Below are positions 4,799 through 49,700 of a stretch of DNA of 64,000 bases, piece after piece. Origin of the DNA: Candidatus Daviesbacteria bacterium. Its GTDB lineage: Bacteria; Patescibacteriota; Microgenomatia; Daviesbacterales; UBA10151. The DNA is taken from contig JACOXG010000012.1 of assembly GCA_016176405.1 (NCBI GenBank), positions 2,217 to 66,216 of the forward strand, read 5' to 3'. The position numbers and the translations under genes were made by a program. The notes below the pieces were generated by a model. It worked only from the letters and a program-made list of their open reading frames with translations. It was not told where the DNA came from and made no database searches. How positions within the stretch are numbered: the first letter of the stretch is position 1; the number at the start of each line of letters is the position of its first letter.

Positions 4799-4826
4799 CA
4801 GTACAACACTGTGCCACTATCATTTA

Positions 4827-4844
4827 AAATGATTCAAATCATTT
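4827..4844. promoter_or_regulatory. 18-bp inverted repeat AAATGATT-ca-AATCATTT (candidate operator), copy 1, overlapping the start codon of the YerC-like gene
   Basis: Two perfect 8-bp arms with a 2-bp spacer. The identical 28-mer ttaaaatgattcaaatcatttaaacaaa recurs at 5301-5328. Confidence 0.5.
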
Positions 4845-4850
4845 AAACAA

Positions 4851-5300
4851 ATGACACAGGTCTCAAGATACCCAATTTCCAAAGAGGTTTATGAAAGATG
4901 CTGGGAAATATTTGTAAAGACTTTAATAGGGATTCACAATGTCAAAGATGCTGAGATAGTTATTAATGATTTGCTAACCCCTACCGAACGGATCATGTTA
5001 GTAAAAAGATTAGCAACAGCATTACTTTTAATGCAGGGATATGAATATCGAGAAATTAGCAAAGTTTTAAGAGTCAGTCTGCCAACCATATCCGCAGTTA
5101 ACAGATCTTTAAGATATGGCAGTAATGGTTACAATAAAGCACTTTCTAAAATCTTAAAAGATGAACAGTTTGCAGAATTTCTTAATAAAATGATCCAAGG
5201 CATAATTGCTCTGCCAGCTCGAGGGGGGATAGGCTCGGGAACGTATAGGTATCTTAGACAAGAACTCCAGAAAAGGTCAAAAGACAGAAAAGCCTTCTAG
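4851..5300 (+). CDS. YerC/YecD (TrpR-like) family HTH DNA-binding protein
   Basis: LLTPTERIMLVKRLATALLLMQGYEYREISKVLRVSLPTISAVNRSL matches the Trp-repressor-like YerC family signature. The gene is bracketed by identical 28-bp repeats at 4824-4851 and 5301-5328. Confidence 0.6.
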   Translation: MTQVSRYPISKEVYERCWEIFVKTLIGIHNVKDAEIVINDLLTPTERIMLVKRLATALLLMQGYEYREISKVLRVSLPTISAVNRSLRYGSNGYNKALSKILKDEQFAEFLNKMIQGIIALPARGGIGSGTYRYLRQELQKRSKDRKAF

Positions 5301-5303
5301 TTA

Positions 5304-5321
5304 AAATGATTCAAATCATTT
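5304..5321. promoter_or_regulatory. 18-bp inverted repeat AAATGATT-ca-AATCATTT (candidate operator), copy 2, upstream of the histidine-phosphatase gene
   Basis: Identical to copy 1. It lies immediately after the YerC-like stop codon and 17 nt before the next ATG. Confidence 0.5.
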
Positions 5322-5338
5322 AAACAAAGTGAAAAAAA

Positions 5339-5878
5339 ATGATTGCCATAATATTTGAAGCGCATGGGACTTCTTTTGATAATGAGAATAATCTCTCTTC
5401 TGGACATTTTGATGTAGAACTATCCCCTTTAGGCATTAAACAAGCCAAAGAATTAGGAGAACGCTACAAAAATGAGCATTTTGAGGCTATTTTTGTGTCT
5501 GATTTACAAAGATCATATAAAACTGCAGAAATTGCTTTTGGAAATAAATTTCCTATTAGAAAAGATAAGAGACTTCGAGAATGTGATTACGGGGATTTAA
5601 CCAGACACCCAAGCAGTGAAGTGGAATCACTTAAAGTAAAGCATATTACAAAACCATTTCCAAATGGAGAATCTTATAAAGATTGTTTAAAAAGGATAAA
5701 GGACTTTTTAGATGAGTTAAGACAAAAATACCACGGCCGTGGGAAAAATGTTTTAATTATTGGTCACAGAGCAACTCAATATGGACTAGAACATTGGATA
5801 AATGGAATTGATATAAAAACTTTACTAACCACCCCCTTTAAATGGCAACCAGGTTGGAAGTATGAATTTGACTTTTAG
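5339..5878 (+). CDS. histidine phosphatase superfamily (phosphoglycerate-mutase-like) protein
   Basis: 179 aa. N-terminal IIFEAHGTS resembles the RHG motif, with E where the catalytic R is expected. A later IIGHRATQ histidine is present. Family assignment rests on motif resemblance only. Confidence 0.45.
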   Translation: MIAIIFEAHGTSFDNENNLSSGHFDVELSPLGIKQAKELGERYKNEHFEAIFVSDLQRSYKTAEIAFGNKFPIRKDKRLRECDYGDLTRHPSSEVESLKVKHITKPFPNGESYKDCLKRIKDFLDELRQKYHGRGKNVLIIGHRATQYGLEHWINGIDIKTLLTTPFKWQPGWKYEFDF

Positions 5879-10832: not shown

Positions 10833-11574
10833 AAAGAAAGTAATAAATAATAAGCGAAGCTTTCCTTCTACTAACGTAGAACGTAAGAAACAAGTAACAA
10901 GTAAAAAAGTTACCCCAAAAGCTAGTGGATTATCTATACCAGTGTATTCTCTAGCAGGCAGAGCATCTGGAAAATTATCTTTACCAAAAGAAATTTTTGG
11001 GCAAAAAGTTAATAAAACTTTACTGGCTCAAGCTTTAAGAGTTTATATGGCCAATGTAAAAGGTCATTTTGGATCAACCAAAACTCGGGGTGAAGTTAGA
11101 GGTTCCACTGCCAAAATTTACAGACAAAAAGGAACTGGTCGAGCCAGACACGGTGCAATCAGGGCACCGATTTTTGTAGGTGGAGGAATTACTTTTGGTC
11201 CAAAACCGCGCAAAGTTAGATTAGATCTGCCCAAAAAAATGAAAAAAGCAGCTTTAGTTTCTGCTTTATCTTCCAAAATAGCAGATAAACAAGCCATTGG
11301 TTTAACTGGTATAGATAAAGCTTCTGGTAAAACTAAGGAATTTGTCAGTCTTTTAGATAAAGTGAGGGGTAAAGGAAAAAATATCAGCTCTCTAATTGTG
11401 ACTGGAGACAAAACAGATAATGTGGTCAGGGCTGTGAGAAATATTCCAGGAGTGGATGCATTACCCATTAATTTAATAAATACTTATGAGGTGTTGAAGC
11501 ATGACATGTTGCTTATCACAAAAGAGGCAGTTGATATTTTAAGCGGAAAGGGTAAAGCGGAAAGGGTAAAGTAA
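10822..11574 (+). CDS. rplD: 50S ribosomal protein L4 with a basic N-terminal extension
   Basis: The ATG at 10822 lies 6 nt after an AGGAGG SD and overlaps the rplC stop. ...TKTRGEVRGSTAKIYRQKGTGRARHGAIRAPIFVGGG is the L4 core. The longer ORF starting at 10717 overlaps rplC and was rejected. Confidence 0.88.
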   Translation: MPVKKKVINNKRSFPSTNVERKKQVTSKKVTPKASGLSIPVYSLAGRASGKLSLPKEIFGQKVNKTLLAQALRVYMANVKGHFGSTKTRGEVRGSTAKIYRQKGTGRARHGAIRAPIFVGGGITFGPKPRKVRLDLPKKMKKAALVSALSSKIADKQAIGLTGIDKASGKTKEFVSLLDKVRGKGKNISSLIVTGDKTDNVVRAVRNIPGVDALPINLINTYEVLKHDMLLITKEAVDILSGKGKAERVK

Positions 11575-14603: not shown

Positions 14604-14888
14604 GTGAAAAAACGAGAATTGACACAAATTAAAAGTTTACCAGTCAAAGAGCTAATTTTAAAAGCAAAAGCCATCAAAGGAGAAATAGCAAATTTAGTGA
14701 TTGATAAAAATATCAAAAAGTTAAAAGATACCAGATCTATTTTTAAAAAAAGAAAAGATTTGGCTCAGGTTTTAACAATTATCAGGCAAAAACAATTACT
14801 TGAAAAATTAGAATCTAGAGTCGAGAGTCAAGAGTCTAGTAAAGAAGTGTCAAAAGCTGAAACAAGAAAGGAGAAAACTAGTCTCTAG
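14604..14888 (+). CDS. rpmC: 50S ribosomal protein L29 with a C-terminal Lys/Glu/Ser-rich extension
   Basis: ELTQIKSLPVKELILKAKAIKGEIANLVID...LAQVLTIIRQK matches the L29 fold. A GTG start at 14604 follows a GAGAAAGGTGAG SD. An alternative TTG at 14583 overlaps rplP. Its tail contains a 35-nt repeat shared with recX. Confidence 0.75.
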   Translation: MKKRELTQIKSLPVKELILKAKAIKGEIANLVIDKNIKKLKDTRSIFKKRKDLAQVLTIIRQKQLLEKLESRVESQESSKEVSKAETRKEKTSL

Positions 14889-16002: not shown

Positions 16003-16020
16003 GTTGAGCGGACTCATGAA

Positions 16021-16090
16021 GGAGATCCTTCGACTCGCTTCGCTCGCTCAGGATGACAACAAAAGTTTAGAAATTATACTTTTGTTGTCA
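16021..16090 (+). repeat. family-1 palindromic repeat element, copy 1 (intergenic rplX-rplE)
   Basis: ggagatccttcgactcgcttcgctcgctcaggatgaca + hairpin TGACAACAAAAGT-ttagaaattata-ACTTTTGTTGTCA. It ends 1 nt before the rplE start. See 22077-22181 and 47786-47854. Confidence 0.8.
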
Positions 16091-16091
16091 A

Positions 16092-16637
16092 ATGACCATG
16101 AACAGACTTAAAGACAAATATCTAAAAGAAGTACAGGCTAAATTACAACAAGAACTGGGACTAAAGAACAGATTGGCCATACCCCGTTTGGATAAGATAG
16201 TCATCAGTATAGGTCTGGGAGAGGCCAAAGACAACAGTGGCATTTTAGATAAAGTTAAAATTTATTTGGCTGCTCTGGTTGGACAACAACCTGTTATAAC
16301 TTATGCTAAAAAATCTGTTGCTACTTTTAAAGTTTCTAAAGGTCAACCTATTGGGATGATGGTGACTTTAAGAGGTGATAAAATGTTTGCCTTCTTGGAT
16401 AAGTTAATTAATATTGTTTTACCCAAGGTGAGAGATTTTAAAGGTATCTCGGAAAAGTCCTTTGATACTCAAGGGAATTTAAATATTGGACTAAAAGAAC
16501 AGATTATTTTTCCTGAGGTAGATTATAAAGCAATTGATAAAGTGAGAGGTCTGGCTGTTACCATTACCAGCACTGCCAAAAATAAAGAGGAAGGGAGAAA
16601 ACTTTTAGAGGCATTGGGAATGCCGTTTAGGAGTTAA
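16092..16637 (+). CDS. rplE: 50S ribosomal protein L5
   Basis: [42 protein letters not shown]...[31 protein letters not shown] matches L5. Confidence 0.93.
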
Positions 16638-21825: not shown

Positions 21826-22068
21826 ATGATACAAGATGTAATTGAAATAGAGGGTAAGGTTGTGGAAGTTTTACCTAATACTTTATTTAGAGTTGAAATT
21901 GAGGAAAGTCGCGATCTGCCTGAACTGGTAGGCAGAGTCATCTTGTGTCATATATCAGGCAAGATGAGAATGCACTATATTAGGCTTTTGGAAGGAGATA
22001 AAGTTAGAATAGAGATGAGTCCGAAATATGATTTGGATAAAGGAAGGATAACATTTAGAATAAAGTGA
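21826..22068 (+). CDS. infA: translation initiation factor IF-1 (with a ~12-aa internal insertion)
   Basis: [18 protein letters not shown]...[36 protein letters not shown]. An [12 protein letters not shown] insertion lies in the S1-like fold. Confidence 0.88.
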
Positions 22069-22076
22069 CACGAAGT

Positions 22077-22181
22077 GTCATCCTGAACGAAGTGAAGGAT
22101 CTGATTACGAGGGAGATCCTTCGACTCGCTTCGCTCGCTCAGGATGACAGAAAAATTTAAGAAATTATAATTTTTCTGTCA
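22077..22181 (+). repeat. family-1 palindromic repeat element, copy 2 (intergenic infA-rpmJ), long form with extra inverted arm
   Basis: tgtcatcctgaacgaagtgaaggatc ...gatccttcgactcgcttcgctcgctcaggatgaca + hairpin TGACAGAAAAATT-taagaaattata-AATTTTTCTGTCA. Confidence 0.8.
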
Positions 22182-22188
22182 ACTAACA

Positions 22189-22305
22189 ATGAAAGTACAA
22201 GCAAGTATTAAAACAAGATGTAAGTTTTGCAAAATCGTTAAACGCGAGGGTATCTTGTACGTGATCTGTCCAAGAGATCCAAGACACAAGCAGAGACAAG
22301 GATAA
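22189..22305 (+). CDS. rpmJ: 50S ribosomal protein L36
   Basis: Manual translation gives [38 protein letters not shown] (38 aa). It is below the ORF-track cutoff. Canonical position between infA and rpsM. Confidence 0.88.
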
Positions 22306-22340
22306 AATACTTGTCCTGAGCGACTGAAAGGAGTCGAAGG

Positions 22341-26129: not shown

Positions 26130-27542
26130 ATGGATTTACCCCCTGAGAAGATTTTTAAAAGTTATGATATTAGAGGAATTTATCCTGATCAGTTAAATGA
26201 ACAATTTGCCATCCCCATTACCAAAGCCATTTATAAACTTATTTCTGATCAACTAAATACCACTAAACCTCTCACTATTGCCGTAGGACGTGATATGAGA
26301 TTATCTTCTCCTGCTATTTTTGAGGCAGTTTCTAAAACTTTGGTGGAATTAGGTACAGAAGTGATTGATTTAGGAATTGTTTCCACCCCCACTTTTTATT
26401 TTGCAGTTTATAAATTTGGATATGACGGTGGGATTCAAATCACTGCCTCGCATAATCCCAAAGAGTATAACGGTTTAAAGATTGTTAGAAAATCGAAAAG
26501 TGGACTTATCAAAATTGGTAAAAATACTGGTATGGAAGATATTAAGAAAATGAGTAGAGAAGGGGTGGATATTGTTGCTCGAGGAAAAGGCAGTATTACC
26601 AAAAAAGAAGGGGTAGCTGAAGAAGAGGTACAAAATGCTTTAAAAATTGCAGGCTATCCTAATATTAAAAAATTTAAAATTGTGGCGGATGCAGCAAATG
26701 CCTTAGGAGCTTTATATATTGATGCTTTATTTAAAGCTATCCCTGGGGATTTAATAAAAATGAATTTTGAGCTAGATGGTACTTTTCCAGCTCACCCGGC
26801 AGATCCACTTATACCAGAAACTTTAAAAGATTTACAAAAAAAAGTTTTGGAGGAAAAAGCAGATTTTGGACTGGCCCCGGATGGAGATGGGGACAGATTA
26901 ATTTTTATTGATGAAAAAGGCCAAATCATTCCTGCCTCTTTGATCACTGCTTTGGTGGCCAAAGAGATACTATCCGAGAAAAAAGGGGAAACTATTCTTT
27001 TTGATATTCGCTATATTTTAACTCCTAAAAAAATTGTTGAGGAATACCAAGGTAAATATGAAATTACCAAAGTGGGACATGCTTTTATTACAGAAAAAAT
27101 GCACCAAACAGGTGGGATTTTTGCCGGTGAATCATCCGCCCATTATTTTTTTAGAGAGACTGGTAATGCTGAATCACAACTACCAATAATTTTAATAGTT
27201 CTTAAAGTAATGAGCCGCGAAAATAAATTAATTTCAGAGATTGTCGGATCGCTAAAGAGGAGTCATGAATCAGGGGAGATTAATTTCAGGGTGAAAAATG
27301 GCTTGGAAATAATCGAGGCTTTAAAGGAGAAATATTCGGATGCAGAAATTAGTGAATTGGATGGGATAGCAGTATCTTATAAAGACTGGCGATTTTCCAT
27401 TAGAACATCTAACACCGAACCATTGCTTCGTCTTAATGTTGAACATATTGGAAAAGAAGATTTGGAGGGTAAAACTCAAGAGATAATTGAGGAAATCAAA
27501 AAGCATGCAGTGTTTGAGGGTCCTTCGACAAACTCAGGATGA
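26130..27542 (+). CDS. phosphoglucomutase/phosphomannomutase family protein
   Basis: YDIRGIYP...ITASHNPKEYNGLKIV (active-site Ser)...APDGDGDRLIFID...GESSAHYFF. The last 8 codons and the stop lie inside a family-1 repeat copy. Confidence 0.88.
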   Translation: MDLPPEKIFKSYDIRGIYPDQLNEQFAIPITKAIYKLISDQLNTTKPLTIAVGRDMRLSSPAIFEAVSKTLVELGTEVIDLGIVSTPTFYFAVYKFGYDGGIQITASHNPKEYNGLKIVRKSKSGLIKIGKNTGMEDIKKMSREGVDIVARGKGSITKKEGVAEEEVQNALKIAGYPNIKKFKIVADAANALGALYIDALFKAIPGDLIKMNFELDGTFPAHPADPLIPETLKDLQKKVLEEKADFGLAPDGDGDRLIFIDEKGQIIPASLITALVAKEILSEKKGETILFDIRYILTPKKIVEEYQGKYEITKVGHAFITEKMHQTGGIFAGESSAHYFFRETGNAESQLPIILIVLKVMSRENKLISEIVGSLKRSHESGEINFRVKNGLEIIEALKEKYSDAEISELDGIAVSYKDWRFSIRTSNTEPLLRLNVEHIGKEDLEGKTQEIIEEIKKHAVFEGPSTNSG

Positions 27543-27560
27543 CGAATTAGGAAATTTGTC
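27516..27560 (+). repeat. family-1 repeat element, short copy overlapping the pgm 3' end
   Basis: gagggtccttcgacaaactcaggatgacgaattaggaaatttgtca. Hairpin TGACGAAT/ATTTGTCA. The stop codon TGA lies within the conserved caggaTGAca. Confidence 0.65.
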
Positions 27561-27597
27561 ACTTGCCAAAATAATTTGATTATGATTTAATAATAAA

Positions 27598-27700
27598 TAC
27601 ATCAAGAGTTCCCGCACCAAACTGGTGCGGGACGGCAACCGGAAAGTAACGGTGCCAAATTCCAACTGCCAATAGGCAGAACGAGAGGAAGATGTGTCCC
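27598..27700 (+). ncRNA. SAM-I-family riboswitch aptamer (possibly a SAM-I/IV variant)
   Basis: AUCAAGAG...P2 hairpin CCCGCACC-aaac-UGGUGCGGG...GGCAACC-loop-GGUGCC AAAUUCC ...P4 CUGCC-aaua-GGCAG ...AGAUG. The P3/J3-4 core matches the SAM-I consensus GGCAACC...GGUGCCAAUUCC. Sits upstream of metK. Confidence 0.6.
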
Positions 27701-27725
27701 GAGCTTGTCGAGGGAAAACTTTAAG

Positions 27726-27748
27726 CCTCTCGATTAGAGAGGTTTTTT
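27726..27748 (+). terminator. riboswitch expression-platform terminator
   Basis: CCTCTC-gatta-GAGAGG followed by TTTTTT, 2 nt before the metK ATG. Confidence 0.65.
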
Positions 27749-27750
27749 AA

Positions 27751-28863
27751 ATGATAAAAAACGGTAATACATCTTTCACTTCCGAATCAGTCTGCGCTGG
27801 TCATCCAGATAAAATTTGTGACCAAATCTCTGATGCTATATTAGATGCAGTTTTAACTCAAGATTCTCAAGGCAGAACTGCCATTGAATGTTTAGCAGGA
27901 CATAATAGACTAATTATTGCCGGAGAAGTAGGTGCCAAAGCCAAAATCAATTTTAAAAAAATTGCCAGAGATCAAATAAAAAGATTAGGTTATACTAATT
28001 CTGAATTTAATTTTTCAGACAAATCTCCAATAGAGGTATTTGTTCACGAACAATCCCCGGAAATTGCTGTTGGGGTAAAGAAAAAAGGAGCAGGGGATCA
28101 GGGAATGATGTTTGGTTTTGCCTGTAAGGAAACTGACTCACTGATGCCTCTTCCTATTACTATTGCCCATGCCTTAGTTAAAAGAATGGATCAAGTCAGG
28201 GAGGAAAAAATTGTTAAATATTTAAGGCCTGATGGGAAATCGCAGGTCACTGTGGAATATAGAAATGGCAAGCCCTATCGAGTAACTCAAGTTGTAATAG
28301 CAATACCACATGAAGAATCAGTGGATCTAAGTCAGGTGAAAGATGATGTATATAAAAATATTGTCATACCAGTTTTGGATGTTTTTGGATTTAAAATAAA
28401 AAAGGATCAATTAATTGTAAATGGTACAGGTATCTGGCATAACGGAGGGCCGGCATCAGATTGCGGGTTAACTGGTAGGAAAATTGTGGTTGATACTTAT
28501 GGAGGTATGAGTAGGGTAGGTGGTGGTTGTTTTTCTGGAAAAGAACCTTCAAAAGTTGATAGGGGAGGAGCATATGCTGCCAGATTTTTGGCCAAAAATA
28601 TTGTGGCTTCTGGTTTGGCTGATAAAGCAGAAGTGAGACTAGCCTATTTTATTGGGGCTAAAAAACCAACCATGCAAGATGTGGAAACATTTGGTACTGC
28701 TAAAAAATCTCATAAAATTATACTTTCTTTTATGAATAAAATTTTAGATACTTCAGTTTCAGGGATTTTACAAGGATTAGATTTACAAAGACCAATATAT
28801 TTACCAACAGCCTCATATGGACATTTCGGTAGAGAAGAATTCCCTTGGGAAAGAATAGTTTAA
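27751..28863 (+). CDS. metK: S-adenosylmethionine synthetase
   Basis: SESVCAGHPDKICDQISDAILDA...GAGDQGMMFGFA...GGGCFSGKEPSKVDRGGAYAARF are MAT signature blocks. Short 370-aa form. Confidence 0.88.
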   Translation: MIKNGNTSFTSESVCAGHPDKICDQISDAILDAVLTQDSQGRTAIECLAGHNRLIIAGEVGAKAKINFKKIARDQIKRLGYTNSEFNFSDKSPIEVFVHEQSPEIAVGVKKKGAGDQGMMFGFACKETDSLMPLPITIAHALVKRMDQVREEKIVKYLRPDGKSQVTVEYRNGKPYRVTQVVIAIPHEESVDLSQVKDDVYKNIVIPVLDVFGFKIKKDQLIVNGTGIWHNGGPASDCGLTGRKIVVDTYGGMSRVGGGCFSGKEPSKVDRGGAYAARFLAKNIVASGLADKAEVRLAYFIGAKKPTMQDVETFGTAKKSHKIILSFMNKILDTSVSGILQGLDLQRPIYLPTASYGHFGREEFPWERIV

Positions 28864-30012: not shown

Positions 30013-30060
30013 TTTATTGGCAAAATATGTTGTTTAAATGATTTAAATCAATGGAACAAT

Positions 30061-34096: not shown

Positions 34097-34774
34097 ATGC
34101 CCAAAATTACCTCAGTTGAACCTCAGAAAAAAACCCTTAGACTTCGCTCAGGGCAAGGTCCGCACAGATTTAATATTTTTTTAGATGGAGTGTTTGCTTT
34201 TGGGGCAGATGAGGATTTGGTGGTAGAAAATAGGTTAGTGGAGGGAAAATTACTTGACACATCCGATGTGGAACAGCTGTTATTTGAGGCAGAGGTAGGA
34301 AAATTGATGGAGAAGATGTATGGACTTTTTAATATCAGACAAAGATCTGAAAGAGAAGTCAGGAATTATTTTAGAGTCAAGAATCTAGAATCTAGAATCA
34401 AGGGTAAAGAAGAAATAAGCGATTTAGCAATTGAGTTAGTTATTAAAAAGTTAAAACAAAAAAATCTAATAAATGATGAGGAATTTGCCAAAGCTTGGGT
34501 AGAATCAAGATCCAGAAAGTATGGCATAAATAGAATAAAACAGGAACTTTTTCAAAAAGGGATTAATAGAGAAATTATAGAGGAAGTGACTAGAGTCGAG
34601 AGTCTAGAGTCTAGTGAAGAAGTGGCCCAACAACTTTTGGAAAAGAAGATGAGAGTATGGAAAGATTTACCAATTTTAGAATTTAAAAAGAAAGCTTATG
34701 AGTTTTTAATGAGAAGGGGTTTTGAGTTTGAAGTAGTTAAGGCTGTTGTTGAAAAATATCTTAAAAAAGAGTAA
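34097..34774 (+). CDS. recX: recombination regulator RecX
   Basis: Lies immediately downstream of recA. Three-helix repeat architecture ...INDEEFAKAWVESRSRKYGINRIKQELFQKGINREIIEEV...KAYEFLMRRGFEFEVVKAV. Confidence 0.75.
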   Translation: MPKITSVEPQKKTLRLRSGQGPHRFNIFLDGVFAFGADEDLVVENRLVEGKLLDTSDVEQLLFEAEVGKLMEKMYGLFNIRQRSEREVRNYFRVKNLESRIKGKEEISDLAIELVIKKLKQKNLINDEEFAKAWVESRSRKYGINRIKQELFQKGINREIIEEVTRVESLESSEEVAQQLLEKKMRVWKDLPILEFKKKAYEFLMRRGFEFEVVKAVVEKYLKKE

Positions 34775-34887: not shown

Positions 34888-35742
34888 ATGGCACAGCACT
34901 CATTTGGTCCTAAAAATTTTGGTTCCCAACCCAGCCAGTCTTCCAGTGGAGATTTCTCAAGTAGTGAAGCAGAACTTGCCAAAAGAGAGGGAATTTTAGA
35001 GGAAAGAGAAAGGCAAATTTCAGAAAAACAAAAGCTAGTTGATGAAAAGTTGGAACAACTGGAAAAGACAAGAAAAGATTTAGTTGCAAAATTAGAAAAG
35101 TCTGCCAAGATGTCTTCTGATGATGCAGGTAAGATTCTTTTAGAACAAGTAGAAAAAGATTTAGCAGTTGAAATATCTAAAAAGATTACAGAGGCAGAAG
35201 AGGAGATAAAAGTTACTGTAGCTGAGAAAAGTAAGGAAATATTGGCAGATGCAATAGTACACGGATTTACAGACTATATTTCAGAATTTACCACCTCCAG
35301 AATAAATTTACCTGATGAAGAAGTGAAAGGGAGAATTATTGGTAAAGAAGGTAGAAATATTAGGACATTTGAACAAGCCACTGGGGTGGATGTCATTATG
35401 GATGATGAAATTCCCAACAGTTTAATTTTATCATCTTTTGATTCTGTCAGAAGAGAGATTGCCAAAGTTTCTTTGGAAAGACTTATGCTTGATGGTAGGA
35501 TTCAGCCACAAAGAATTGAGGAAATTGTTAAAAAAACCGAGGAAGATTTTGAAAAATTGATGCTGGAAGCAGGAGAAAAACTTTGTCGGGATGCAGGAGT
35601 GTTTAATCTGCCGGCAGAATTGGTTCAGATTTTAGGCAGATTCAAATATAGATTTTCCTTTGGGCAAAACTTAATTCAACATACACTGGAGGAAACCAGA
35701 ATTGGAGTGGCTTTAGCAAAAAATGATTGGAGCAGATGCTAA
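34888..35742 (+). CDS. rny: ribonuclease Y, N-terminal fragment (KH domain), interrupted by a frameshift
   Basis: GKEGRNIRTFEQATGVDVIMDD (KH)...GRFKYRFSFGQNLIQHTLEETRIGVALAK, then a stop. The continuation is in the +1 frame at the A6 tract (35718-35723). Confidence 0.75.
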   Translation: MAQHSFGPKNFGSQPSQSSSGDFSSSEAELAKREGILEERERQISEKQKLVDEKLEQLEKTRKDLVAKLEKSAKMSSDDAGKILLEQVEKDLAVEISKKITEAEEEIKVTVAEKSKEILADAIVHGFTDYISEFTTSRINLPDEEVKGRIIGKEGRNIRTFEQATGVDVIMDDEIPNSLILSSFDSVRREIAKVSLERLMLDGRIQPQRIEEIVKKTEEDFEKLMLEAGEKLCRDAGVFNLPAELVQILGRFKYRFSFGQNLIQHTLEETRIGVALAKNDWSRC

Positions 35743-36235
35743 TATTGTTCGTTTAGGGTGTTTATTACATGATGTTGGTAAAGTGGTCACTGAAGGTGAT
35801 GAGGGCACACATGTAGAAAAGGGTGTGCAAATTGCCAAAAAATTTAAGATGCCGGAGGAGGTTGTTAATTGTATTGCCGAACATCATGAAGATAAACCAT
35901 TCTCTTCTGTTGAGTCAGTTTTAGTATATGTGGCAGATGCTATTTCCGGTGGCAGACCTGGAGCCAGACATGAAAATGTGGAGGATTACATAAAGCGGTT
36001 GGATGACATAGAAAAAATTGCCACCTCTTTTGAGGGAGTGGATAGGGCTTTTGCAGTTCAAGCCGGTAGAGAAGTTAGAGTGATAGTGACACCTGAGAGA
36101 ATCTCTGATGATGAGTTGCCAAAATTAGTTCATGATATTGGGGAGCGGATTTCTAAAGAAGTGATGGTACCGGGAGCTGTTAAAATTACAGCGGTCAGAG
36201 AAACCAGAGCCACAGAGACAGTCATGAGCCAGTAA
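35723..36235 (+). CDS. rny: ribonuclease Y, C-terminal fragment (HD domain)
   Basis: LLHDVGKVVTEGDEGTHVEKGVQIAKKFKMPEEVVNCIAEHHED...VADAISGGRPGARHE...FAVQAGREVRVIV matches the RNase Y HD domain. Confidence 0.75.
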   Translation: MIGADANIVRLGCLLHDVGKVVTEGDEGTHVEKGVQIAKKFKMPEEVVNCIAEHHEDKPFSSVESVLVYVADAISGGRPGARHENVEDYIKRLDDIEKIATSFEGVDRAFAVQAGREVRVIVTPERISDDELPKLVHDIGERISKEVMVPGAVKITAVRETRATETVMSQ

Positions 36236-47233: not shown

Positions 47234-48226
47234 GTGAATACTAAAATATTAACTATTTTAGGTCCTACTGCAACAGGTAAAACTGACCTAGCCTTAATGG
47301 TGGCAAAAAAATTTAATGGAGAGATTATTTCTTGTGATTCCAGACAAGTTTATAAGGGCTTGGATATCGGCACGGGAAAAATGCCAAATGCCAAATTACA
47401 AATTACAAAAGGAGATAGCTTTTGGGAAATAAACAGCATAAAAGTTTGGATGTATGATATGGTGGATCCAAAAAAAATATATTCTGTGGCGGATTATGTT
47501 AAAGATGCAAATAGGGTAATTGGGGAAATTAAGGATAGAGGAAAGTTGCCAATTATAGTTGGAGGTACAGGACTTTATTTAAGAGCCTTACTGGAAGGAT
47601 TAGATAGTCTTTCAATACCAATTGATAAAAAATTAAGAACTGAGCTACAAAAACTTTCATTAGTTGAGCTTCAAGAAAAATTACAGGAGGTAGATGCTAA
47701 AAAATGGAAGAAAATGAATGACTCTGACAGACAGAACCCAAGAAGGTTGGTAAGAGCTATTGAATTGGCTTTGTCAAATCATGTGGGAGATCCTTCGGTC
47801 GCTACGCTCCCTCAGGATGACAAACTGCGTTTAGAGATTATACGCAGTTTGTCAAATGTGCTAAAGGTTGGTCTAACTGCGCCAAGAGATGTCCTTTATA
47901 AAAGAGTTGATGAGCATGTGGTTTTTAGAATTAACCAAGGCATGATTGATGAGGCAAAAAGACTTTATAAAAATAGTTTAAGTTTAAAAAGGATGAGACA
48001 GCTTGGTTTGGAATATGGAGTTTTGGCAGATTATTTAGAGGAAAAAATTAAAAGTAAAGAGGGCCTAATTAAAATCTTGCAGCATAAAATTCATGGCTAT
48101 GTCAGACGTCAACTGACTTGGTTTAAAAAAGAAAAAGAGGTAAATTGGTTTGATATTTCTGATCAAGATTATATTAAGAAAATAGAAAAATTAGTCAGCA
48201 TTTGGTATGATCAATCCATAGAATGA
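47234..48226 (+). CDS. miaA: tRNA dimethylallyltransferase, carrying an in-frame family-1 repeat insertion
   Basis: LTILGPTATGKTDLALMVAKKFNGEIISCDSRQVYKGLDIGTGK P-loop. Residues GDPSVATLPQDDKLRLEIIRSLSN are encoded by repeat copy 3. Confidence 0.88.
   Translation: MNTKILTILGPTATGKTDLALMVAKKFNGEIISCDSRQVYKGLDIGTGKMPNAKLQITKGDSFWEINSIKVWMYDMVDPKKIYSVADYVKDANRVIGEIKDRGKLPIIVGGTGLYLRALLEGLDSLSIPIDKKLRTELQKLSLVELQEKLQEVDAKKWKKMNDSDRQNPRRLVRAIELALSNHVGDPSVATLPQDDKLRLEIIRSLSNVLKVGLTAPRDVLYKRVDEHVVFRINQGMIDEAKRLYKNSLSLKRMRQLGLEYGVLADYLEEKIKSKEGLIKILQHKIHGYVRRQLTWFKKEKEVNWFDISDQDYIKKIEKLVSIWYDQSIE
47786..47854 (+). repeat. family-1 palindromic repeat element, copy 3, in-frame inside miaA
   Basis: ggagatccttcggtcgctacgctccctcaggatgaca + hairpin TGACAAACTGCGT-ttagagattata-ACGCAGTTTGTCA. 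The stem is fully compensated relative to copies 1 and 2. Confidence 0.8.
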
Positions 48227-49206: not shown

Positions 49207-49565
49207 GCCTAGGAAGAAGGATGATCACCCCGCACCAATCTGGTGCGGGGAGGAAAGTCCAGACAGCACAGGGCAGGGTGGTTCGGGTAACCGGACTCGG
49301 GTAACCGCAAGTAAAGAGTAACAGAGACGATCTGGGTGACGCCAGGTGAAACGACCAAGTGACTGGGTATTCGATAAGCAAAGGGCTATCAGTCCTGAGC
49401 GAAGTCGAAGGACAATCCTCCCCGCTGCAATCCTAGAAACAATCGAGCTGCTCGCTCAATGATTGAAGTCAGGAGCAGTCGCCTAAGGCGACTCAGGATG
49501 ACAAAAATCATACTGAAGATAAATGATCATCTAGAAACAGAATCTGGCTTACTTTTTTCCTAGGC
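49207..49565 (+). ncRNA. rnpB: RNase P RNA (bacterial type A-like)
   Basis: P1 GCCTAGGAAG...CTTTTTTCCTAGGC. P3 CCCCGCACC-aatc-GGTGCGGGG. P4 GGAAAGTCC. ACAGGGCAGGGTG. ...ACAGAATCTGGCTTAC 3' P4 strand. Contains a ~130-nt segment with family-1-like arms. Confidence 0.75.
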
Positions 49566-49590
49566 AATTTTTTTGCCGACGGAAAAAAGC

Positions 49591-49645
49591 AAAGTTCTGC
49601 GAGCGTGAAGTAAAATATTTAATACTGAAGCGCGAGCAGGTCTTT
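49591..49645 (-). repeat. family-2 hairpin repeat, copy C (minus orientation, downstream of rnpB)
   Basis: The reverse complement aaagacctgctcgcgcttcagtattaaatattttacttcacgctcgcagaactttgc aligns with copies A and B. Confidence 0.65.
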
Positions 49646-49700
49646 ACTATCTTCCTAGGCATTCGCATTAGGTTTAGCGCTGCCCCGTATATACTACTCA

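Follow-up and report, generated by a model that had tools for sequence, protein, structure and literature searches.

Changes of gene ends driven by repeats are a phenomenon already known for small bacterial repeats. In Coxiella burnetii, insertions of QMITE1 and QMITE2 provide functional genes with their final amino acids, their stop codon or both (PMC5896051), and in Rickettsia, palindromic elements (RPEs) are found inserted in frame in protein-coding genes, where they are tolerated within a reduced genome (reviewed in PMC10969869). The repetitive extragenic palindromes and their mosaic clusters (REP/BIME) include the GTAG- and CGTC-tagged superfamilies treated in PMC3733652. The locus described here lies in a 64,000-nt stretch of a Candidatus Daviesbacteria genome (contig JACOXG010000012.1; the whole stretch is referred to below as the window), in which a phosphoglucomutase/phosphomannomutase (PGM/PMM) gene takes its last codons and its stop codon from a short repeat belonging to a family that appears to be new.

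The best explanation of the locus as a whole, including the repeat family and the persistence of the insertion, is that a 41-nt repeat insertion remodelled the end of the PGM/PMM gene, a reading to which a probability of about 0.8 is assigned. A short, non-coding, hairpin-forming interspersed repeat entered the last codons of the gene, and the insertion would have persisted because the altered tail lies beyond the folded enzyme, an in-frame stop codon is reached almost at once and the conserved ACTTGCCAAAATA box was left intact. The locus is an unusually clean before-and-after case, with empty-site orthologues for comparison and the native end surviving beside the insert.

The PGM/PMM gene end in its empty and filled forms

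The gene end comprises the following features (window coordinates):
26130-27542, + strand: PGM/PMM-family gene from the list of open reading frames (ORFs), 470 aa, with the last 7 codons and the stop encoded by the element
27520-27560, + strand: inserted repeat element GTCCTTCGACAAACTCAGGATGACGAATTAGGAAATTTGTC, 41 nt, missing from eight orthologous loci in which TTTGAGG runs directly into ACTTGCC
27521-27539, + strand: hairpin-1 module TCCT-TCGAC-AAA-CTC-AGGA, the conserved 5' block, which occurs across phyla
27540-27542, + strand: new stop codon TGA, inside the invariant family 11-mer CTCAGGATGAC (27533-27543)
27540-27561, + strand: hairpin 2, formed by TGACGAATT (27540-27548), the loop AGGA and AATTTGTCA (27553-27561), with nine pairs including one G-T
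27561-27574, + strand: displaced native gene end ACTTGCCAAAATAA (formerly (D)LPK-stop), with the old TAA at 27572-27574, now untranslated

The protein encoded by this ORF contains all four of the Pfam domains PGM_PMM_I-IV, and a protein 100% identical to it is annotated at NCBI as Candidatus Daviesbacteria (Microgenomates, candidate phyla radiation (CPR)). Its C-terminus, ...KKHAVFEGPSTNSG (FEGPSTNSG), is encoded by the closing codons GAG GGT CCT TCG ACA AAC TCA GGA TGA, and TGA is a true stop in this genome, given that infA stops at TGA where a relative has TAA at the same codon. An earlier interpretation made from the DNA letters alone (the sequence-only reading) had proposed that the EGPSTNSG-stop codons are encoded by the conserved 5' block of a repeat family, that the TGA sits within a conserved repeat string and that a hairpin follows immediately. 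The first proposal is borne out by the sequence and by repeat counts and the second by the position of the TGA within CTCAGGATGAC, while the third holds in the form that the nine-pair stem begins at the stop codon itself.

The comparison set consisted of 120 homologous PGM/PMM proteins and 56 orthologous loci from species-representative genomes. Nearly all Daviesbacteria homologues among the 120 share ...KHAVFE and most continue as DLPK followed by the protein end; the EGPSTNSG tail occurs in 0/120, and the C-terminus departs from the homologues exactly at the repeat boundary, as the sequence-only reading had predicted, the first changed codon being GGT versus GAC. At the DNA level, the empty allele runs from ...TTTGAGG directly into ACTTGCCAAAATAR (FEDLPK-stop) in L001, L002, L007, L010, L011, L013, L014 and L177, followed by a conserved spacer (..TATGGTTTACTA..) and then the start of a riboswitch (CATCAAGAG). 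The window allele has ...TTTGAGG, the 41-nt insert and ACTTGCCAAAATAA, and then the same spacer and riboswitch, which places the insertion point between G27519 and A27561, 13 nt upstream of the native stop. As the native end is intact directly downstream of the insert, it was displaced, not deleted. The sequence-only suggestion that the element replaced the native 3' end is thus correct for the protein tail, where DLPK (4 aa) became GPSTNSG (7 aa) with a gain of three residues, but not for the DNA, where the native end is still present. Among the closest relatives of the filled allele, at 84-86% identity, one has a different insertion and all others have the native-type tail.

Alignments of solved PGM/PMM structures to this protein end at residues 447-459, from which it follows that residues 464-470 form a free tail outside the fold; the change of tail is probably close to neutral for the enzyme. 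The stop codon is the first triplet of the hairpin-2 stem, and it is possible that termination would be slowed or otherwise affected there. In E. coli, REPs lying up to 15 nt from a stop are reported to reduce expression or to cause tmRNA tagging.

Downstream of the displaced end lie the following features:
27594-27731, + strand: S-adenosylmethionine (SAM)-I/IV riboswitch aptamer upstream of metK (Rfam RF01725, 36.5 bits, below the gathering score of 41.1 bits, E = 2e-4)
27697-27715: terminal hairpin of the riboswitch, TCCCGAGCTTGTCGAGGGA, a reverse-orientation hairpin-1 module found by pattern search
27751-28863: metK, directly downstream of the riboswitch

The native gene end appears to be constrained as DNA. 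The box ACTTGyCAAAAwTA stands at a fixed distance upstream of the riboswitch in those orthologues that retain the riboswitch, and in L005, in which the gene ends earlier (EDGSGH-stop), it stands past the stop codon, so that the constraint on the box falls on the DNA and not on the peptide. Judged by its sequence, TTGCCA (27563-27568) is probably the -35 element of a riboswitch/metK promoter, as the arrangement TTGCCA-17 nt-TTTACT/TTTAAT resembles a -35 and an extended -10, with a TG one base upstream of the second hexamer in orthologues and TGA in the window. In the window TTTAAT occupies 27586-27591, and metK transcription is predicted to begin about 7 nt beyond it. The conservation of FEDLPK among orthologues would be explained in this way, its codons appearing to double as the promoter box. 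On this reading, the insertion would have fallen where a coding sequence and the neighbouring promoter overlap, with the promoter box untouched.

No terminator-like site was found in 27400-27800, hairpin 2 being AT-rich and followed by CTTGCC with no T-run. A hairpin followed by a T-run, missed by the terminator scan, is present after the riboswitch at 27726-27748 and ends 2 nt before the metK start. The insert segment 27521-27539 is the near-perfect reverse complement of the riboswitch segment 27697-27715, and 1/1000 shuffles reaches their duplex energy of -28.4 kcal/mol. In read-through transcripts the insert could possibly pair with the terminal hairpin of the riboswitch, and transcripts from the metK promoter, located between the two, would escape such pairing. 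The stem of this terminal hairpin is TCCC/GGGA where others have TCCT/AGGA, and in L001 the module in the same hairpin is doubly nested.

Other alleles are found at the same gene end. L006, with a protein 71% identical, carries a different and longer member of the family at the same right junction (...CGTC/ACTTGCC), giving the tail FEK. At 11395-11416, L179 carries the 15-nt palindrome CCAAGTCTGACTTGG with a flanking 7-nt duplication, TTTTTGA, giving the tail FDQV, with the native GAGGACTTGCCAAAATAA kept downstream. L178 (1905-1920) retains neither riboswitch nor promoter, its PGM stop overlapping the metK start (ATGA), which means that this lineage has lost its SAM control of metK. The nearest relatives of each altered allele (84-92% identical over the first 455 residues) have the native-type tail, and the recurring tail changes reflect either independent events or recombinational exchange of a short 3' segment. 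The FEK tails were considered as a single shared event and this was rejected, since L006 has a family member whereas L178, also FEK, merely lost its riboswitch. The FDQV/FDRV tail recurs in several clades (proteins P0012, P0013, P0060 and P0088). A string similar to the L179 palindrome, CCAAGTGACTGGG, is found inside the first insertion in the RNase P RNA gene of the window.

The repeat family in the window and across phyla

Further copies in the window are the following:
16018-16102, + strand: long composite copy in the spacer upstream of the L5 gene
22066-22193: infA-rpmJ spacer, with a reverse partial copy at 22066-22101 (over the infA stop TGA) and a long composite copy at 22109-22193
22305-22340, - strand: reverse hairpin-1 copy filling the rpmJ-rpsM spacer and supplying AAGGAG just upstream of the rpsM ATG
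47782-47866, + strand: long composite copy within miaA, in frame (...GDPSVATLPQDDKLRLEIIRSLSN...)
49354-49410, + strand, boundaries approximate: first RNase P RNA insertion, ~57 nt, with the reverse hairpin-1 module GTCCTGAGCGAAGTCGAAGGAC at 49391-49412
49479-49515, + strand, boundaries approximate: second RNase P RNA insertion, 37 nt, carrying CTCAGGATGAC at 49492-49502

The gene names L24 and L5 are assigned here presumptively, from our own reading of operon order and N-terminal sequence. The copies follow the plan (GGAGA)TCCT-TCGAC-[3-14 variable nt]-CTC-AGGA-TGAC[stem]-loop-[stem]GTCA. The string TCCTTCGAC occurs 5 times in the window (0.17 expected, with 0/100 shuffles reaching 5), as does the 11-mer CTCAGGATGAC, with every occurrence on the + strand and 0.00 expected. 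Repeat finding grouped the long copies at 16018, 22109 and 47782 as one family (D1), and at least nine hairpin-1 copies are present in the window, in both orientations within transcripts. The PGM-site copy is a short variant in which the variable middle is only AAA, and its hairpin 2 is a shortened form of the 13-bp-stem hairpin of the long copies; it folds slightly better than its shuffles (z = -1.5), compared with z = -3.2 to -3.9 for the long copies. A search with the 32-mer of the 27516 copy at up to 3 mismatches matched only itself, as expected of a short variant with a variable middle, since the family is visible only by gapped patterns.

Several of these sites are differently occupied in relatives. 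The infA-rpmJ spacer of L177 is unrelated and 39 nt long, and only TTT separates rpmJ stop from rpsM start in the same relative. The MiaA linker RAIEL-LKIGL that holds the miaA copy is hypervariable across 120 homologues; in many it includes the module, read in the frame of the window copy (GDPS...QDDKLRLxIIRSLSN), in a different frame (RRSSFDFAQDHLRG) or in the opposite orientation (VILSGAKDL). The orthologous miaA copy of L181 shares its hairpin-2 stem with the window copy and has a further module nested within it, in the middle. The RNase P RNA gene (49209-49567; Rfam RF00010, 116.6 bits) contains two blocks that are both peripheral and, by alignment, absent from the same gene in three other Daviesbacteria. 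The RNase P RNAs of L181, L182 and L183 appear minimal, with private insertions in each lineage, such as one of ~33 nt in the first hairpin in L181. The 3' end of the RNase P RNA (..CTTACT..TTCCTAGGCA) occurs twice in window 49540-49670, ~100 nt apart, and may represent another insertion with a long target duplication; in L183 at ~5780-5866 there is a similar duplication of AACAGAATCTGGCTT around an inserted block.

On both strands of the long copies there are sigma-70-like hexamer pairs with up to 11/12 matches (ATGACA-16-TATAAT, for instance); they are matches to consensus only and arise from the geometry of the element, its stem ends looking like -35 boxes and its loop like -10 boxes. Such pairs stand at 16053-16091 and 22144-22182, directly upstream of the L5 gene and rpmJ. 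By their hexamers, the long copies may have promoter activity.

The two hairpins of the element differ in their distribution. Hairpin 2 (TGAC-stem-loop-stem-GTCA) is lineage-specific, the 13-bp perfect stem with the loop TTAGAAATTAT being found only in window copies and in the relative L178. Five composite copies have five different, perfectly paired stems (ACAACAAAAGT, ACAGAAAAATT, ACAAACTGCGT, ACGAATT and ACAAATTGAT), despite 5' blocks and loops that are nearly identical among them. The infA-rpmJ copy is recent, as it is absent from L177 and L179, and yet no other observed stem resembles its own. Its source copy may be located beyond the 64-kb window, or insertion itself may produce new stems. 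Were stems made anew with each insertion, this would imply either hairpin-templated mobility or recognition of the core by a ubiquitous host factor, in both cases as yet uncharacterised. In the rpmJ-rpsM copy, GACAAG in the end of rpmJ pairs with CTTGTC in the insert. The idea that one hairpin-2 arm is templated from the target flank was rejected, being suggestive at rpmJ-rpsM and unsupported at the PGM site, where the empty allele is without both arms.

Hairpin 1 was followed through metagenome contigs with the pattern TCCTTCGAC-N0-25-CTCAGGATGAC, which recovered at least 120 loci with at least 138 copies on contigs of 29-68% GC, including sub-families with their own flanks. With only TCGAC...CTC held fixed, the flanking 4-mers were perfectly complementary in 122/997 matches, as opposed to 0-5 for scrambled motifs, and 33 of these 122 use other stems (CCCT/AGGG, TGGT/ACCA, GGCT/AGCC, CACT/AGTG, TTCC/GGAA, GTTC/GAAC and more). 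Among 52 sequences not chosen on stem sequence, the covariation score was 0.444 versus 0.202 +/- 0.026 for shuffles (0/500 reaching it) and 0.11-0.17 for slid controls. The reverse strand folds better in 89/95 distinct cores, which is the orientation found in the RNase P RNA and the riboswitch, and its RNA form is UCCUGAG...GUCGAAGGA. Hand analysis, backed only by this reverse-strand stability, gives the format stem-GA-[loop/extension]-GA-stem (UCCU GA GCUUGUC GA AGGA), that of a K-loop with tandem G-A pairs possible; long forms of hairpin 1 can also pair without a bulge. K-turns and K-loops have tandem sheared G-A pairs beside a 3-nt bulge or loop, with a canonical stem alongside, and hairpin 1 may be of this kind. 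By-eye comparison with the hammerhead ribozyme, C/D-box, T-loop, 11-nt tetraloop receptor and group II intron domain 5 led to the rejection of each for missing essential positions, and TIGR arrays were rejected as the copies are dispersed and not arrayed with spacers.

Among 35 copies on contigs of up to 50% GC, 30 are intergenic, 2 lie over stop codons and 3 are inside ORFs. Some contigs hold satellite-like tandem arrays of the module, and the soil contig L109 (~58% GC) has, at 165-753, 4.2 tandem copies of a 143-nt unit with two hairpin-1 modules each. A related hairpin, GATCCTTCGTCGGCTTAATGCC(T/C)(T/C)CTCAGGACGAAG, stands downstream of the RNase Y gene, at one and the same position, in L177 (17114-17149) and L179 (18045-18073), where a similar motif may be in conserved use and not mobile.

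The family appears undescribed. Rfam gave no relevant match to the element across 27400-27850 (E <= 1) or in 11 copy-rich metagenome loci (E <= 0.1), and the only features of the window to reach the gathering score are RNase P and a tRNA. Family members compared by BLAST with plasmids and phages had no match, searches for the core DNA strings, their variants and the translated peptides in the searchable literature returned unrelated primers or nothing, and no description of the family was found in the literature on CPR/Patescibacteria repeats, MITE (miniature inverted-repeat transposable elements) and REP. As the core module spans contigs of very different GC and is absent from Rfam, a dedicated survey may be worthwhile.

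Other features of the window were noted. The RNase Y gene (34888-36235) is split into overlapping ORFs of 284 + 170 aa by a +1 frameshift in the A6 run GCAAAAAATGATT (~35720-35726), and in relatives is a single gene of 444-457 aa; either the frameshift is a sequencing error or a slippage site, or the gene is a pseudogene. A second, unrelated repeat family of CTAGAGTCGAGAGTCAAGAGTCTAG-like units is found at 14794-14849 and 34364-34624, with 94% identity between the sites, and also occupies the infA-rpmJ spacer of L179 (5810-5870). An exact 28-nt direct repeat, TTAAAATGATTCAAATCATTTAAACAAA, which is partly palindromic, is present at 4824-4851 and 5301-5328, immediately upstream of the consecutive ORFs 4851-5300 and 5339-5878 (probably rpsL and rpsG), with a third copy, 79% identical, at 30033.

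Proposed mobility and competing explanations

Mobile DNA is inferred from the presence or absence of copies at at least four sites, together with dispersed, mostly intergenic copies in either orientation. The family is judged, at slightly better than even odds, to spread by non-autonomous movement in trans, with a single-stranded hairpin as the probable moving form, as for REP or IS200/IS605-derived elements. That terminal inverted repeats are lacking, and that the PGM site shows no duplication, speaks against a classical DDE-type MITE and agrees with single-strand hairpin elements.

Several observations weigh against insertion of a mobile repeat. No transposase-like domain was found in the 20 non-ribosomal ORFs of the window, all tested ORFs being housekeeping. 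The comparison of empty and filled sites at the PGM locus reveals neither a target-site duplication nor terminal inverted repeats, and the 5' junction shares the 4-nt GAGG with the usual 5' flank of the element (GAGGGAGATCC), so that microhomology-mediated capture or template switching could instead have been responsible. The copy-specific stems of hairpin 2 are a feature that simple copying from a master element fails to explain. The allele is known from one assembly only, with no contig encoding an identical PGM or MetK protein in a second assembly. With respect to the untouched promoter box, a consensus promoter scan picks TTGTCA (the end of the element)-16-GATTAT instead of the TTGCCA pair, which it rejects because position 2 of the second hexamer is not A.

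A tentative and rather improbable reading of hairpin 1 is that it is an undescribed cross-phylum module dependent on hairpin-templated mobility or on a ubiquitous host factor recognising the core. Such a module, with an invariant GAG/GUCGA core (TCGAC...CTC on the other strand) and a freely covarying stem, would spread by nesting in its own loop, as in the L001 riboswitch and the L181 miaA copy, and would also enter peripheral loops of essential structured RNAs (RNase P RNA and the SAM riboswitch) and protein linkers.

The copies could alternatively constitute a selected functional motif and not selfish DNA, acting as a protein-binding or stabilising RNA hairpin, an insulator between PGM and the riboswitch or a portable promoter. 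An invariant core over 29-68% GC with a covarying stem is a signature of structural constraint, hairpin-2 stems differ yet remain perfectly paired with a conserved loop, the stem of the miaA copy is retained in a 67%-identical orthologue, the long copies hold sigma-70-like pairs (ATGACA-16-TATAAT, 11/12) and the reverse-strand form is located in the RNase P RNA and the riboswitch. However, close relatives differ in whether a copy occupies a given site, so that the copies are not conserved as regulators of the genes concerned; within transcripts they lie in both orientations, and some contigs have satellite-like arrays. The lack of a T-run terminator and of an Rfam family, and the presence of copies in protein linkers in three frames, as tolerance and not function would predict, make this explanation unlikely.

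Quite unlikely is an origin by local template switching or inverted duplication, in which the riboswitch hairpin, 156 nt further downstream, served as template for a reverse copy, or a replication error templated by a quasi-palindrome produced the block. The reverse complementarity of 27521-27539 and 27697-27715 would be accounted for in this way, and the L179 allele does look templated, with its palindrome, TTTTTGA duplication and a GACTTG in common with adjacent native sequence, and with FDQV/FDRV in several clades. The insert nevertheless carries CTCAGGATGAC and a hairpin 2 with a loop like that of long copies (TTAGGAAAT versus TTTAGAAATTAT), and the riboswitch hairpin has neither, continuing as GGGACACA. 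The short form TCCTTCGACAAGCTCAGGA is moreover the generic form of the module in many unrelated contigs, and likeness to the riboswitch hairpin is therefore expected between any two members of the family.

An assembly artefact, in which reads from another copy of the repeat were threaded into the locus, is very improbable. Although only a single assembly contains the protein and repeats are a classic cause of misassembly, the 41-nt insert is shorter than a read and has collinear native flanks on both sides, no donor for a chimera is visible as the insert differs from every other copy in the window, and in L006, which is of an unrelated lineage, another member of the family shares this right junction. 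The remaining possibility, that EGPSTNSG is a native conserved C-terminus with a coincidental likeness to the repeat, is refuted for practical purposes: some homologues do end in the superficially similar FEEGPSH, FEDGPTH or FEEGSTH (compare FEGPST), but these tails belong to more distant clades (~70-73% identity) and differ in DNA in those examined (L004 and L016), all close relatives read GAGGACTTGCCAAAATAG, the exact native end is still downstream of the insert, and the 11-mer at the stop is an exact family match with 0.00 expected.

CPR genomes are small and gene-dense, yet under the preferred reading of a repeat insertion this one tolerates hairpin insertions in ribosomal-operon spacers, RNase P RNA, a riboswitch and a tRNA-modification enzyme. 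Such repeats create spurious or altered ORF ends and odd peptides (GPSTNSG, FDFAQDD and VILSGAKDL), which annotators of metagenome-assembled genomes should recognise.

Comparison with known repeat elements

QMITEs resemble the PGM-site repeat in favouring 3' ends, barely altering protein size, placing stable stems by the stop codon and entering RNA genes and, in frame, ORFs (PMC5896051). They measure 100-300 bp or more and carry both terminal inverted and direct repeats, whereas the Daviesbacteria element is 41-85 nt with two internal hairpins and neither feature at the PGM site. No MITE-type terminal inverted repeats were found, as the 41-nt insert ends in GTCCTTCG.../...AATTTGTC and the long copies in GAAGGAGATCC.../...GTTGTCAAATG, with complementarity confined to the two internal hairpins. 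The miaA copy is flanked by the 10-nt direct repeat TTTGTCAAAT and the 16018 copy by AAATGA, and as both overlap the conserved 3' end of the element (GTCAAATG) they are maybe not duplications.

Correia/NEMIS and ERIC elements are short repeats with promoter-like hexamers that alter neighbouring expression or gene ends, and have defined terminal inverted repeats, to which Correia elements add a TA duplication and an IHF site. The window copies share the promoter-like hexamers; the terminal inverted repeats, TA duplication and IHF site are not seen here.

REPs are the nearest structural parallel. Hairpin 1 is like REP/BIME elements in being an imperfect palindrome in the range of 20-40 nt with conserved unpaired positions, mostly extragenic, in many copies in either orientation, sometimes paired or clustered, and, at the PGM site, without target duplication. 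Its size of 19-45 nt, covarying stem and many mainly extragenic copies are those of a REP-type repeat. A GTAG or CGTC tag is not consistently present, the conserved flanks being (G)GAGATCC/CAGG... and ...GGATGAC, and no RAYT (Y1/HUH) transposase gene was found among the window ORFs tested. REP sequences are typically species-specific, whereas the same hairpin-1 core is found over contigs of very different GC, with copies also in coding and structural RNA genes.

The in-frame and tolerated peptide insert in the miaA linker is of the kind produced by RPEs, which also insert into RNA genes. RPEs are ~100-150 bp, confined to Rickettsia and conserved as a peptide in one frame, whereas the present module is 20-45 nt and occurs in several frames and both orientations in a Daviesbacteria host. 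The element thus acts like repeats of the MITE, REP and RPE types, but fits no single family among them.

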